Assembly (NCBI GenBank): GCA_963786955.1 | Contig: CAWBAT010000005.1 | Coordinates: forward strand, 1,664,001 to 1,728,000 | Direction of reading: 5' to 3' | Length of the DNA stretch: 64,000 nucleotides | Source of the DNA: an uncultured Acidimicrobiia bacterium | Lineage (GTDB): Bacteria > Acidobacteriota > Terriglobia > Versatilivoradales > Versatilivoraceae | Shown here: positions 5,414-13,547 of the stretch, one piece after another | Layout of the letters: each line of letters opens with the position of its first letter | Position numbering within the stretch: position 1 is the first letter of the stretch | Notes under the pieces: model-generated | Databases searched by the model: none | Seen by the model: only the letters and a program-made list of their open reading frames with translations | What the model was told of the DNA's origin: nothing | Made by a program: the position numbers and the translations under genes

Positions 5414-5452
5414 TTGACAAATTAATATAATTAATCTATTTTAGTTAATTAG
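5414..5452 (+). promoter_or_regulatory. sigma70-type promoter of groESL with an overlapping palindromic operator
   Basis: TTGACA (5414-5419), 17 nt, TATTTT (5437-5442). Palindrome ATAATTAAT-N8-GTTAATTAG at 5427-5452. No CIRCE (TTAGCACTC-N9-GAGTGCTAA) in the leader. Confidence 0.75.
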
Positions 5453-5539
5453 ATGAGCCATTCCAATCACCTCAAGGATTTCCCAACTTAGTCTGGTTCA
5501 CTGAAATCTCACCTAAAACGACAACCCAAGGAGGTTACG

Positions 5540-5854
5540 ATGAAAGTTAGACCCCTGCATGATCGTATTTTGCTCAAGCGGATCGACGAGAAGGAAAGCG
5601 TTAAGGGTGGAATCATCATTCCCGACACCGCCAAAGAAAAGCCCCAGGAAGCTGTAGTGGTGGCCGTAGGAAATGGCAAGATTTTGGAAAATGGAACCAA
5701 GCTGGCGTTAGATGTGAAAGAGGGCGATCACGTTCTCTTTGGGAAGTACTCCGGATCCGAGATCAAAGTTGACGGAGAAGAATACCTCATCGTTCGTGAA
5801 GATGATGTCTTGGGAATTTTGGCTGAGTCGGCCAAATCAAAAGCTTCTAAGTAA
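5540..5854 (+). CDS. groES: Co-chaperonin GroES
   Basis: [14 protein letters not shown]...[14 protein letters not shown]...[19 protein letters not shown]. Confidence 0.99.
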
Positions 5855-5904
5855 TTTTTCTATTCCACGAACTGTTACCCACTCATTTATTCCAGGAGGT
5901 TTAA

Positions 5905-7533
5905 ATGGCAAAGCAAATTATTCATGGAGAACAATCCCGACAGGCCATTCTCAGGGGGGTTAATCAATTGGCGGATGCCGTAAAAATTACCCTGGGACCC
6001 AAGGGCCGGAATGTAGTCATCGACAAAAAGTTTGGTTCTCCCACCATCACCAAAGACGGCGTGACGGTGGCAAAGGAAATTGAATTAAAGGATGCGCTAG
6101 AGAACACGGGCGCTCAGATGGTGCGTGAAGTGGCATCCAAGACCAGCGATGTGGCAGGCGATGGCACCACCACAGCCACAGTTCTGGCCCAGGCCATTTT
6201 CCGGGAAGGCGTCAAGACCGTTGCTGCTGGCGCCAATCCGATGGCTTTGAAACGCGGGATCGAGCGTGCTGTTGAACTGATCGTGGCCGAGATTAAGAAA
6301 GTGGCCAAGCCAGTCAAGGGAGATATGATTGCCCAGGTGGGCACCATATCGGCGAACGGCGATGCGAACATTGGCAACATTATCTCCGAAGCCATGAAGA
6401 AGGTTGGCAAGGACGGAGTCATCACGGTGGAAGAGGCCAAGACCATCGATACGACGCTCGAAGTCGTCGAGGGTATGCAGTTTGACCGCGGTTATCTTTC
6501 TCCTTACTTTGTGACGGACCCGGAGCGAATGGAGACAACCCTGGAGAACCCGTATATCCTGCTGCACGAGAAGAAAATCAGCTCCATGAAGGATCTACTT
6601 CCCTTACTGGAACAGATTGCCAAGACCGGGAAGCCGTTTCTCATTGTGGCTGAAGAGGTGGAAGGCGAAGCGCTCGCAACCCTGGTCGTCAACAAACTGC
6701 GTGGCACCCTGAATTGCGCGGCCGTCAAGGCTCCTGGCTTCGGAGATCGCCGCAAAGCCATGTTGGAGGACATTGCTGTTCTGACCGGCGGCAAGGTCAT
6801 CAGTGAAGACCTGGGAATCAAGCTCGAGACGGTTCAACTGGCGGACCTGGGCCGCGCCAAGAAGATCACGGTGGATAAAGATAACACGACGATTGTTGAA
6901 GGTGCCGGTAAACCGGCCGACATTCAAGGCCGAGTAAAGCAGTTGCGTTCTCAAGTGGAAGACACCACTTCCGACTATGACCGTGAAAAGCTGCAGGAAC
7001 GGCTGGCGAAGTTGGTGGGGGGTGTAGCGATCATTAAAGTGGGAGCCGCCACGGAGACAGAAATGAAGGAGAAAAAGGCCCGCGTGGAAGATGCGATGCA
7101 TGCCACCCGTGCCGCTATTGAGGAAGGCGTGGTTCCTGGCGGCGGTGTCACGTTTATTCGCGCCGGCAGTGTGCTGGAGAAGTTGAAGCTGGAAGAGGAC
7201 GAGCAGATTGGCGTCAACATCGTTCGTCGCGCTTTGGAAGAGCCTCTCCGTCAGATTGCTCAGAATGCCGGAGTCGAAGGGGCGGTGGTGATTTCCCGGG
7301 TTCGTGCAGAAAAGGGGGAAAACTATGGCTACAATGCCGAGACCGACAGCTATGGAGACCTGGTGAAGGATGGCGTCATTGATCCCGCCAAGGTGACTCG
7401 CATCGCTTTACAGAATGCCGCATCCATTGCGGGATTGATGCTGACGACCGAAGCCATCGTTGCTGAAATTCCAGAAGAGGAGAAAGTGGCTGCGAGCCCT
7501 CATGCCGGCGGCATGGGTGGAGGGATGTACTAA
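5905..7533 (+). CDS. groEL: Chaperonin GroEL
   Basis: [34 protein letters not shown] and a C-terminal GGMGGGMY tail. Confidence 0.99.
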
Positions 7534-7568
7534 TCCCCAGCCGGGGGCATCTCAGAAAATACTTTTCT

Positions 7569-7599
7569 AGACCGCTTGCAATTTAAGCGGTCTTTTTTT
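7569..7599 (+). terminator. Rho-independent terminator after groEL
   Basis: AGACCGCTT-gcaattt-AAGCGGTCT stem followed by a T-run. Confidence 0.85.
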
Positions 7600-7699
7600 A
7601 TTTGCTGAACTGAAGACTCGAGGGATTTGTCCGGCACTTTGGAATTGAAGTAAAGCAACTGGAGAGTGTCGCAGCCTAAAATCCACACAATAGTCGCTC

Positions 7700-7740
7700 A
7701 ACAAAAAGGCCAGCCCTCGGAAGCTGGCCTTTTTGTTTGT
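7700..7740. terminator. Bidirectional terminator between convergent groEL and glgC
   Basis: ACAAAAAGGCCAGC-loop-GCTGGCCTTTTTGT with A and T runs on the two sides. Confidence 0.8.
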
Positions 7741-11692: not shown

Positions 11693-11723
11693 ACAAGCTC
11701 CCAGGACGACTGGTCTGGCAGTC

Positions 11724-12074
11724 TTATAGTGACTCGCTGCCGGGTACCCGATTCGTGATCGATGCCATCGAGAGAATCGGTTGCCTCTTTAACGCCAACA
11801 AGGAGATCATGAAGGTCATCAGGCAAACCCAATCCAGCCAGAGAAGTGTCTTACGAGACAGGACCAAAGGCACGATGGGATTAAAGAGTACGGCAATAGC
11901 TAGGAATCCAGTTGCCCACATGTACTTGCCGACACGAGCCGCCTGCGTGAGGACTAGAAGGGCAGAGACACAAACAACCAATTCCAACAATACTTGGTAG
12001 GGCGCCGCAAGGCTTAACCCCGCCAGAAGCAACACCACGCTGGAAACCCACTTCATGATATTCGTTAGCATCAT
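11724..12074 (-). CDS. Small membrane protein, DUF6804-like
   Basis: About four hydrophobic segments with an AIAVLFNPIVP motif; AGAGG RBS before ATG 12074. Confidence 0.7.
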   Translation of the reverse strand: MMLTNIMKWVSSVVLLLAGLSLAAPYQVLLELVVCVSALLVLTQAARVGKYMWATGFLAIAVLFNPIVPLVLSRKTLLWLDWVCLMTFMISLLALKRQPILSMASITNRVPGSESL

Positions 12075-12178
12075 TAACCTCTTTTCTTCTGTTCTATTTA
12101 GACCCCTGATGATTGTTGCAGGAAATCGGAAAGGGTAGGCATGGTCGTTACCCACCAAACTAAAGTGACCAACCCGGT

Positions 12179-12499
12179 TCAAATTCCGACGCGAGCAGCT
12201 ATCTTGTGAAAGGTCGAGTTGGAGACTTCATAGGTTTGAACCCGGGGAGTCCCCTCAATCACGTTTGCCAGGACTTTCAGCACATCTTTATAAAGACCGC
12301 GGTTGTAGATATCCGCCTGGTCTTTTTGATCCCACAAACTGATTCCCACGGCCTCTGCTCCGCCTGGGACAATAAAAGTAATCTCATCCTGGAAGCCGTT
12401 CTGTTTACGAAGCATGGGAAGAACTTGTTTCTCCATAGTATGGGTAAATTCCGCAACGCTATTGGGTTTCAGACTCAGGTTAACTGTCCGAGCAAACAT
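12179..12499 (-). CDS. Dimeric alpha-beta barrel (antibiotic biosynthesis monooxygenase-like) protein
   Basis: MFARTV..LKP...VLPMLRKQNGF...ISLW...YEV pattern; AAGGAG RBS. Confidence 0.75.
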   Translation of the reverse strand: MFARTVNLSLKPNSVAEFTHTMEKQVLPMLRKQNGFQDEITFIVPGGAEAVGISLWDQKDQADIYNRGLYKDVLKVLANVIEGTPRVQTYEVSNSTFHKIAARVGI

Positions 12500-12589
12500 G
12501 GCAAACTCCTTAGGTTGTTGTCTAAGAGGAGTAATCTCAGATAACCTGACTTAGTTCAGATAGTCTGGGAAATGACTAAAAGTTCTCTT

Positions 12590-12628
12590 CTAGTTAACCA
12601 TTAGAAGTTAATTAGCTTTACGTGTCAA
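12590..12628 (-). promoter_or_regulatory. sigma70-type promoter with a palindromic operator, divergent from the XRE gene
   Basis: Minus strand TTGACA (12628-12623), 17 nt, TCTAAT. Palindrome CTAATTAAC-N8-GTTAACTAG (12615-12590) straddles the -10 box. Confidence 0.75.
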
Positions 12629-12689
12629 GTGAAATATGGGATTATGACGGGCAGGTTAATCGACGCAAATTAAGAGTCGGAGGAGCCAG

Positions 12690-13547
12690 GTGGATGTTTC
12701 TTTAGTCATCAAGCATCGGCTGGAAGAATTGGGTATGGAACAGCGAGATCTTGCGAATGCCGCCCAAGTAACCGAGTCCTACATTTCACAGTTACTGACT
12801 CGAAGAAAAGCTCCCCCCGCGCCTAATCGAACGGATATTTACGTCAAGATGGAAGAATTCTTGAAGCTTTCGAGCGGGGAGCTGGCGAATCTGGCCACCT
12901 TGCAGAGACAGGAAGAACTAAAAAGAAAATTGGCAGACCCGGCCATACCCTTGTTTGAGGAAGTTCGAGAGTTGGTCCTGCGCAAATGCAAACCGGACAA
13001 AGAACAGCAGATCCGAAAAATTTTTGAGCGGCAGCCGTTCGGTGAACTCGAACGATTGATTACCCAGAAACTTTTGGACGTGGTCAAGAGAGTAGCCCGG
13101 GAAGAGTTAGAAAGTGAGAATTGGCTTCACCTGGTAGGCAGACTTAGCAACCGGAGTTTCGAAGAAATGAGGGTTGCCATTCTCGAGTTCCTGGACACGG
13201 ATATCTTTAATGTGTCGCTTGAAAACTGCGTGACCTTCTTGGATCCTCTCATCGAATTCTGGGACATCGATCTCAAGAGTTTTGCTGTGGAGATTGTTTT
13301 AAACCGGAGAGTGGCCCCGGGGCACCCTAAGAAATTCGAGTTTGTGGAAAAGGAACCTCAACCCGCCTTCGACCCAGAACCCGGCCTCGCGAAATTCCTT
13401 CAGGATGCTTCCCTCAGCGGCGATGCGACTGAAGAGGAAATCGTCTTTCTCAGAAGCCTGAGATTCAAGGAGAGACGCCCAACCCCACTTTATTATTATC
13501 GAGAGTTGCAAAGCCTCAGAGACCCGCTCCATTTTCGTATCCCGTAG
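12690..13547 (+). CDS. XRE-family HTH transcriptional regulator with an uncharacterised C-terminal region
   Basis: N-terminal HTH RLEELGMEQRDLANAAQVTESYISQLL; GGAGGAG RBS before the GTG. Confidence 0.88.
   Translation: MDVSLVIKHRLEELGMEQRDLANAAQVTESYISQLLTRRKAPPAPNRTDIYVKMEEFLKLSSGELANLATLQRQEELKRKLADPAIPLFEEVRELVLRKCKPDKEQQIRKIFERQPFGELERLITQKLLDVVKRVAREELESENWLHLVGRLSNRSFEEMRVAILEFLDTDIFNVSLENCVTFLDPLIEFWDIDLKSFAVEIVLNRRVAPGHPKKFEFVEKEPQPAFDPEPGLAKFLQDASLSGDATEEEIVFLRSLRFKERRPTPLYYYRELQSLRDPLHFRIP

Follow-up and report, generated by a model that had tools for sequence, protein, structure and literature searches.

Among the described bacterial systems closest to the one presented here, HrcA is linked to GroEL by a chaperonin feedback loop on the repressor and acts through CIRCE (TTAGCACTC-N9-GAGTGCTAA), HspR is a MerR-type and CtsR a winged-helix protein, and ClgR, of about 100 amino acids (aa), activates clp and lon genes. 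In Deinococcus, the ddrO gene is unlinked to the gene of the protease. Here we describe a further candidate system, found in a 64 kb stretch of contig CAWBAT010000005.1 from an uncultured Acidimicrobiia bacterium (hereafter the window; region under study, 5414..13547). It comprises a 285-aa XRE-type regulator (12690..13547, plus strand) and a palindromic operator located at the promoter of groES-groEL and at that of an operon divergent from the regulator gene. We put at about 0.7 the probability that the 285-aa protein acts on this operator as the repressor of a chaperone/stress regulon, binding as a dimer at the -10 box, with a phased second operator and over groESL, hsp20 and envelope units; the estimate is based on sequence comparison.

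DdrO and its protease IrrE (PprI) provide the structural reference. As described in PMC6868357, the C-terminal domain of DdrO is a three-helix fold without PDB relatives that mediates dimerisation; its last helix carries aromatic residues and is preceded by a basic loop. IrrE cuts the protein within this loop, after L106 and ahead of R107, and the cut abolishes dimerisation. The DdrO/IrrE pair answers radiation, desiccation and oxidative stress, according to PMC6868357 and PMC7907104.

In the full-text literature, subscription-only articles excepted, no paper was found on this regulator, its operator, an XRE-type groESL repressor or acidobacterial groESL/heat-shock regulation. Acidobacteria belong to the most abundant bacteria of soils and to those least amenable to study, and the control of their stress proteins is, to our knowledge, essentially unknown.

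Related loci were the best 80 of 445 confirmed relatives in a species-representative genome set (66-81 % identity of the regulator) and total 1,233,285 bases, or about 1.3 Mb with the window. Most of these records were titled Acidobacteriota (Terriglobia, 'Acidiferrales', Blastocatellia, Vicinamibacteria and Polarisedimenticolia); the titles stem from the depositors, and the binning was taken as deposited. Upstream sites were counted over the 78 loci with at least 150 nucleotides (nt) of upstream DNA, L071 being left out for its truncated gene.

The operator and its promoters

The earlier note, made from the letters of the window alone, had described two promoters of common layout in which a palindrome straddles the -10 box at equal spacing from the -35 hexamer, and direct reading confirmed this. 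At groES, TTGACA (5414..5419, plus strand) was followed after 7 nt by the main operator ATAATTAAT-ctatttta-GTTAATTAG (5427..5452; parts at 5427-5435, 5436-5443 and 5444-5452) and then by atgag. The -10 hexamer was placed within the N8 spacer because a consensus scan positioned TTGACA-17-TATTTT at 5414-5442 (10/12 matches), the half-sites thus flanking TATTTT (5437-5442). The divergent operon displayed, on the minus strand, TTGACA (12623..12628, read 12628-12623), the 7 nt cgtaaag, CTAATTAAC (12615-12607), ttctaatg, GTTAACTAG (12598-12590) and aagag. This second palindrome, operator O1 (12590..12615), flanked the -10 hexamer TCTAAT (12605-12600).

Sites were scored with a position weight matrix (PWM), a symmetrised half-site matrix built from 54 non-window sites. 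Although trained on other genomes, it retrieved exactly three window sites of at least 10 bits, all sharing the core ATTAAC-N8-GTTAAT: the main groES operator (19.1 bits), O1 (22.5 bits) and an auxiliary groES operator upstream of the -35 box, TTTATTAAC-tagattaa-GTTAAGTTT (5375..5400; 20.0 bits). The two groES operators lay 52 bp apart, or about five helical turns. What had been taken for a half-site (TTAACTAG, 5379-5386), with possible control of the divergent ndvB, is actually part of this full auxiliary operator; by eye, no leftward promoter of the shared layout was present around 5375-5400, and the proposed effect on ndvB was dropped. That gene encodes a giant glucoamylase/GT2 protein by Pfam (3-4916, minus strand).

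The pattern TAATTAAYN8RTTAAYTA occurred, with at most two mismatches, only at the main groES operator and O1 in 64 kb (0.04 expected; count reached in 0/100 shuffles), a test that is circular, since these two sites had served to build the pattern; the related loci provide the independent one. CIRCE was absent from the window within three mismatches, as had been reported for groESL, and the HAIR element (CTTGAGT-N7-ACTCAAG) gave one three-mismatch match, at 60369, far from the chaperone genes (1.9 expected). A whole-window scan found no Rfam family; the palindromes therefore match no known RNA element and, in any case, are mostly located upstream of the transcript.

In the related loci, the consensus of 18 positions taken from the two window sites was searched at a threshold of at least 14/18. 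It yielded 30 sites in the 80 loci, against 1, 0, 1, 2 and 0 in five shuffles keeping the local composition over 100 nt. In all 30 cases the start of an XRE, ABM-like, groES or glgC gene followed within 350 nt, and the site adjoined an XRE or a groES gene; those upstream of XRE were usually shared with the divergent ABM-like gene. Scanning the neighbourhoods of XRE homologues for the motif had been proposed as a check, and a site of at least 14 bits was present within 250 nt of the XRE start in 63/78 loci. The position of O1 itself was kept in 58/78 at the same score.

The divergent promoter could be aligned over 55 loci as AGATTnnnC-TTGACA-nGTCAAG-TTAATTAAC-cTAnnnTg-GTTAAnnnA-CTGAGGGAG. TTGACA was invariant (55/55), followed by a 7-nt gap, a half-site, T-A-n-n-n-T 17 nt from the -35 hexamer, and the other half-site. 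The inner positions of the half-sites were near-invariant (C in 104/108 half-sites). The main groES operator of the window matched this layout, as did the groES promoter of locus L005. The conserved 'spacer' is thus simply the -10 hexamer, and the operator consists of two half-sites clasping the -10 box, in a classical occlusion geometry. The comparison well supports an autoregulated dimeric repressor that would occlude the -10 region of sigma-70-type promoters with the help of a phased auxiliary operator.

Phasing was apparent at the regulator gene. In other loci, the leader of the XRE gene carried a second site, O2, centred some 25 nt ahead of the start codon (13/78 loci at a threshold of 14 bits, 37/78 at one of 8 bits). 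The O1-O2 distances clustered at 60-62 bp (19/30 loci) and 70-72 bp (9/30), that is, at whole numbers of helical turns. At groES of L005, two sites were 72 bp apart. The window displayed a degenerate counterpart of O2, GTTAAT-cgacgcaa-ATTAAG (12655..12674), recognised by eye and centred 25 nt before the start codon. In L022, L032 and L050, full sites were also present at a distance of 36-38 nt ahead of the XRE start.

The -35 hexamer of the divergent operon was embedded in a palindrome-like sequence, CTTTACGTGTCAAG in the window and CTTGACAnGTCAAG over the 55 loci (window 12616-12629), whose opposite strand reads TTGAC(G)/TTTACG and may be the -35 box of the XRE gene; a TGnGATTAT-like sequence followed 17 nt further on. 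Since this palindromic -35 would serve both strands, the XRE and divergent-operon promoters appear to be arranged back-to-back with overlapping -35 boxes. A lone TTAATTAG at 14530-14537, without partner half-site and below 10 bits, was treated as a chance occurrence. It lies just upstream of two small adjacent open reading frames (ORFs) of 68 and 78 aa (14581-15056, plus strand), between a GYD-domain gene and a methyltransferase gene.

The palindrome might also belong to another regulator, or be mere promoter architecture, with the XRE protein as a neighbour such as an antitoxin or the repressor of a mobile element. XRE proteins are often antitoxins or phage repressors; the weak best NCBIfam matches of the helix-turn-helix (HTH) domain were antitoxin families (HipB-like, 0.0013; HigA, 0.0022; both far below cut-off), and the best full-length Foldseek matches were HigA antitoxins. 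Against this, no conserved toxin-like partner adjoined the XRE gene, relatives of the regulator were absent from 50,697 phage and 72,556 plasmid records, and the gene was well conserved in a stable chromosomal context (66-81 % identity across the 80 loci, roughly on a par with the 66-93 % of GroEL). A perfect inverted repeat around the -10 box is moreover unnecessary for promoter function, and the sites adjoin the regulator gene in the 63/78 loci counted above, including the leader site at its fixed 25 nt before the start codon. Sites at a regulator's own gene are the usual mark of an autoregulated factor, and we consider the neighbour explanation very improbable.

Genes behind the operator and elsewhere in the window

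In the window, the groESL unit consisted of groES (Cpn10; 5540..5854, plus strand; PF00166, 3e-35) and groEL (Cpn60; 5905..7533, plus strand; PF00118, 2e-82), closed by a terminator-like hairpin (7569..7593, plus strand; 10-bp stem, then the T-run TTTTTTTATTT). The divergent operon, on the minus strand, started with a gene for a 106-aa ABM-like protein (12179..12499), divergent from the XRE gene, followed by genes for a DUF6804 protein (11724..12182; PF20619, 5.6e-12), a LolA-like protein (10811..11692) and, as last recognised member according to its position, the 140-aa protein orf140 (10365..10787). Pfam thus bore out the groES, groEL and DUF6804 labels already proposed for these genes. The LolA-like label received a Pfam match too (LolA_like), a weak one (3e-07, 30.7 bits). 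The ABM label fared less well: Pfam and NCBIfam gave no match and a PDB sequence search none below E 0.8, its basis being a language-model look-alike cluster (Atlas) in which 20 % of members carry PF03992, so that it serves as a lead only. orf140 was likewise without Pfam or NCBIfam match, and its relatives occupied the equal operon position in six loci (L017, L035, L037, L057, L065 and L075).

The ABM-like gene was the first one divergent from the XRE gene in 49/80 loci. groES-groEL was found within the fetched DNA in 39/80, and in 32 of these 39 it was co-directional behind the divergent operator promoter. Operon continuity was judged by ORF tiling: same-strand ORFs tiled the interval, with a largest gap of 0-205 nt, and a further site of at least 14 bits occurred between promoter and groES only in L060. 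A frequent gene order was ABM-like, small ORF, F6, F4, groES, groEL. Three other loci (L022, L050 and L052) had groES directly divergent from the XRE gene and two (L005 and L009) downstream of it; L005 groES displayed two operators of its own (16.9 and 24.3 bits). A AGTTAACTA element near the 5' leader upstream of groES was common to six Gemmatimonadota-titled loci (L022, L033, L045, L046, L050 and L052).

In the remaining two loci (L021 and L055), groES was located 8-10 kb from the XRE gene, behind DUF6804. Their groESL was the closest to that of the window (GroES 70-72 % identical). The regions concerned are 17956-19100 in L055 and 20506-20852 in L021. The L055 groES promoter reads TTGACA-7nt-TTAAGTGTC-atatcata-CTTAAGGAG-atgagc, with the layout and atgagc tail of the window groES promoter and a degenerate palindrome. 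The window appears to be a rearranged version of the common arrangement, in which groESL would have moved 7 kb away from the divergent operon and taken along a promoter-operator module with the same layout. For membership of the regulon, the most telling argument is that a relocated groESL takes the site with it.

Hsp20 (PF00011, 2e-24) was encoded in 19 loci, co-directionally in 15, and its gene directly adjoined the XRE gene in L033, L037, L046, L051, L060 and L062. A Transgly_assoc membrane protein was found in nine loci, co-directional in all of them, and further recurrent members were an RRM RNA-binding protein, DUF6804, orf140 and families F4, F6 and F8 without known function. CIRCE (at least 14/18) was absent from every groES upstream region in the 80 loci, its only match lying elsewhere, unrelated to groES; the suggestion in the earlier note that the operator replaces CIRCE was thus covered for the window and the fetched loci. 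The earlier note had also proposed that the XRE protein represses groESL, the ABM/DUF6804/LolA-like operon and perhaps itself. Comparison supports such control as probable, through the sites in 63/78 loci, the conserved -10 position, the leader site in 13/78 and the groESL/hsp20 linkage.

In 8/80 loci (L003, L009, L020, L027, L038, L048, L049 and L055), the XRE gene had downstream of it, in the same orientation, a gene for a complete RpoD-type sigma-70 factor (regions 1.1 to 4); in five of them this gene started about 1 kb after the XRE start. Between the groESL unit and the divergent operon, the window encoded GlgC (7783-9084, minus strand; Pfam). From 36000 to 44700, GC content rose from about 0.52 to 0.60-0.64; this compositionally distinct block spans a minus-strand Fe-S flavoprotein cluster (NuoF-like, NuoE-like 2Fe-2S, GltD-like and Fer4 proteins, and a PQQ-propeller protein). 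Three further minus-strand features were recorded: a 1124-aa helicase of the SNF2 family (48894-52268), which combines a SWIM zinc finger at its N-terminus with a bacterial SNF2-associated domain; a GH32 glycoside hydrolase (53412-54696) split in two overlapping ORFs (N-terminal domain, 53842-54696; C-terminal domain, 53412-54005), which looks like a frameshift or pseudogene; and a stand-alone toxin-domain-like gene (55950-56492), in whose 180-aa product Pfam recognised a bacterial CdiA-CT RNase A domain (PF18431, 6e-28).

The regulator, its tail and the inducing signal

The 285-aa regulator had more than 8000 relatives in a set of 5.8 billion proteins, the best 120 all being at least 80 % identical; where named, they were XRE-family regulators of Acidobacteria or Terriglobia metagenome-assembled genomes. 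Clustering at 50 % left a handful of full-length divergent representatives (42-63 % identity), so the regulator forms one tight orthologous family rather than a diffuse XRE superfamily; a cluster look-up of these representatives returned no names. In a quick tree of 79 rows (again without L071), the 12 Gemmatimonadota-titled records formed one clade (Shimodaira-Hasegawa-like approximate likelihood ratio test, SH-aLRT, 98), and eight records titled beta-, gamma- or unspecified proteobacterium another (SH-aLRT 96).

Assignment to the XRE/Cro-C1 HTH group (PF01381) rested on structure and on relatives. Foldseek gave a probability of 1.00 to HigA, ClgR, SinR and 434 Cro (target template-modelling score, TM, 0.6-0.8), and many close relatives carry precomputed PF01381, PF12844 or PF13560; in the protein itself HTH_3 scored 1.4e-4 and 22.3 bits, just under the 23-bit Pfam cut-off. 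An AlphaFold2 model from a 40-sequence alignment (mean predicted local distance difference test, pLDDT, 82.5) displayed the HTH (about 3-58) and a long helix (64-80), then a mostly helical part that includes a three-stranded sheet (about 89-216), a disordered linker (219-226) and three to four helices (231-277), the C-terminal three resembling those of DdrO. The full model matched only HTH proteins (HigA, ClgR, the N-terminal domain of DdrO, SinR and 434 Cro), and this search was uninformative on the remainder because the HTH dominated the matches.

With residues 1-87 removed and the rest refolded (pLDDT 78.6), the five best of 350,542 PDB chains were all DdrO (E 0.026-0.56). The isolated DdrO C-terminal domain (6ro6_G) gave a target TM of 0.68, a root-mean-square deviation of 1.9 A over 47 columns and a probability of 0.98. 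A PDB profile search aligned residues 230-265 to residues 77-112 of Deinococcus DdrO, with LRF-K(G/E)(K/R)RPT over IEL-RGKRPR; the aligned stretches are epGLkeFLkDasLsg.aTeeeieFLkrLrfkGKRPt and pkGLsDLmaDPtLgpqiTpDWvrtLsRieLrGKRPr. The equivalent loop, L257-R258-F259-K-E/G-K/R-R-P264-T265, is followed by Y268-Y269-Y270, and L257, R258, F259, P264, T265 and the tyrosines were conserved in at least 90 %. The tail is thus probably a remote homologue of DdrO. Between it and the HTH lies a helical/beta insert of about 130-150 residues without recognised fold; residues 60-285 retrieved nothing at or above 0.8 in the ESM Atlas. No short DdrO-like form was detected when residues 222-285 were searched among shorter proteins, the hits being contig-end fragments of the regulator's own family. 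Homodimer prediction for residues 88-285 scored 0.20 and 0.24 against a mark of 0.42 and counts neither way.

From these data a mechanism can be proposed in which a dimer would bind the inverted repeat (T)TAATTAAC-N8-GTTAATTA(A) in promoters laid out as TTGACA, 7 nt, half-site, c-TAnnnT-g, half-site. Because the half-sites stand on either side of the -10 hexamer, the bound repressor is proposed to exclude RNA polymerase. A second operator, five, six or seven helical turns off, would strengthen repression by cooperative binding; at groES it would act from upstream of the -35 box and at the XRE gene from the 5' leader, adding autorepression. The units so regulated would be groES-groEL, hsp20 and small envelope or unknown proteins (ABM-like, DUF6804, LolA-like, Transgly_assoc, F4, F6, F8 and orf140). 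Most likely, the 285-aa protein is an autoregulated, DdrO-like dedicated repressor of Acidobacteriota and of the Gemmatimonadota-titled clade.

As the C-terminal domain is DdrO-like down to the basic loop cut by IrrE, the likeliest release would be a stress-triggered loss of dimerisation, through cleavage or disruption of the tail; by analogy with DdrO, we give this route a little less than even odds. The insert, of some 130 residues with Cys100 and Cys180, is a candidate sensor.

The same repressor and operator could instead be induced as in HrcA or HspR systems, the repressor requiring GroEL or being heat-labile and unfolded proteins titrating the chaperone, with no protease involved. groES-groEL was the most constant non-regulator neighbour (39/80 loci; in 35 it lay behind the operator promoter or faced the XRE gene directly), which would give the feedback loop described for HrcA and GroEL. 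No protease gene was linked, and the large, mostly helical non-HTH part of the regulator might serve as a client of the chaperone. However, the sequence gives no hint of a need for GroEL, and the sole detectable similarity outside the HTH is to the protease-gated dimerisation domain of DdrO; release by chaperone titration seems to us rather unlikely.

Slightly less likely still is a regulon of desiccation, oxidative or envelope stress of the DdrO kind, including chaperones by chance and induced by redox changes through the conserved cysteines. Cys100 was invariant and Cys180 conserved in at least 90 % of the 40 aligned sequences, the operons encode many envelope or unknown proteins that do not belong to the classical heat-shock set, and the C-terminal domain resembles that of DdrO, a regulator tied to such stresses in the papers cited above. 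However, no DNA-repair gene was seen behind the operator in the 1.3 Mb, and groESL and hsp20 are textbook proteotoxic-stress genes. This alternative differs from the preferred explanation, a dedicated chaperone repressor, in its signal only, and both the chaperone-titration and the redox routes are mutually compatible with tail cleavage.

Several observations weigh against a DdrO-like repressor acting at this operator. The PWM counts (89 sites of at least 14 bits in loci and window, against 1, 5 and 6 in three shuffles) are partly circular, because the matrix was trained on 54 sites of the same loci; the window-consensus test is not. In 15/78 loci the XRE upstream region lacked any site reaching 14 bits; eight of them belong to the Gemmatimonadota-titled clade, where the full palindrome near groES is often replaced by a conserved AGTTAACTA half-site with a -10-like box. 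The XRE-proximal site of the window itself is degenerate (below 6 bits), the stand-alone groES of L009 had only a 9-bit site, and the palindromes at L021 and L055 groES reached at most 10.3 bits. Operon membership was inferred by tiling over crude ORF calls, antisense ORFs having been picked in several loci. The similarity to DdrO was statistically weak (Foldseek E 0.026; hmmsearch E 0.02 for the whole sequence, with an independent E of about 9 for the C-terminal stretch). Finally, no COG2856-like (M78) gene was present near the XRE gene in the 80 loci or the window. HExxH occurred in 8/1505 neighbourhood ORFs, the only conserved neighbour families to carry it being a GGDEF and a Crp one, and the sole window ORF with this motif had no Pfam match.

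Comparison with known systems

The locus provides a defined regulator, an exact model of the operator and an initial list of regulon members, and conserved proteins without known function (ABM-like, F4, F6, F8, orf140 and DUF6804) gain a stress context. Should the DdrO-like tail truly be a protease target, the COG2856/XRE switch would extend from DNA-damage and prophage control to core proteostasis. A broader and doubtful proposition is that Acidobacteriota, and probably Gemmatimonadota, run groESL and hsp20 on a protease-gated DdrO-type switch with a new two-cysteine sensor domain of about 130 residues. If true, this switch would join HrcA, HspR and CtsR as a fourth major repressor system for heat-shock genes in bacteria and would be the first case of COG2856/XRE logic over housekeeping chaperones rather than DNA repair or mobile elements.

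With DdrO/IrrE, the system shares the N-terminal XRE-type HTH, a probable counterpart of the C-terminal three-helix domain with its basic loop (...L-R-x-K-G-K-R-P...), a palindromic operator at the promoter and probable autoregulation; in the window and the 80 loci the regulator gene lacks a linked protease gene, as in Deinococcus. It departs, though, in three defining features, namely size, operator and regulon: DdrO is a two-domain protein of about 130 aa, whereas the regulator described here has 285 aa with its additional insert; the radiation/desiccation response motif (RDRM) differs from ATTAAC-N8-GTTAAT; and DdrO targets DNA-repair genes, in another phylum, instead of chaperone and envelope genes.

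ClgR of Actinobacteria is likewise a small XRE-family HTH protein set over proteostasis genes, and its HTH was among the best fold matches (3f51 and 3f52). It is, in contrast, an activator, without DdrO-like domain and with an unrelated operator. HspR/HAIR and CtsR have in common with the present system an autoregulated repressor and the negative control of heat-shock operons, but neither is of XRE type. HrcA/CIRCE offers a parallel in its working, with a dedicated repressor, an inverted-repeat operator at the groESL promoter and a chaperonin-centred regulon. The protein families are nevertheless unrelated (no HrcA domain in the regulator by Pfam or NCBIfam), as are the operators; CIRCE is placed in the leader, whereas the half-sites described here flank the -10 box, and the regulator gene is here divergent from its target operon. 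In its presumed working, the system thus resembles HrcA/CIRCE or HspR/HAIR while belonging to neither family: it is best described as a putative dedicated chaperone repressor built on a DdrO-like chassis.

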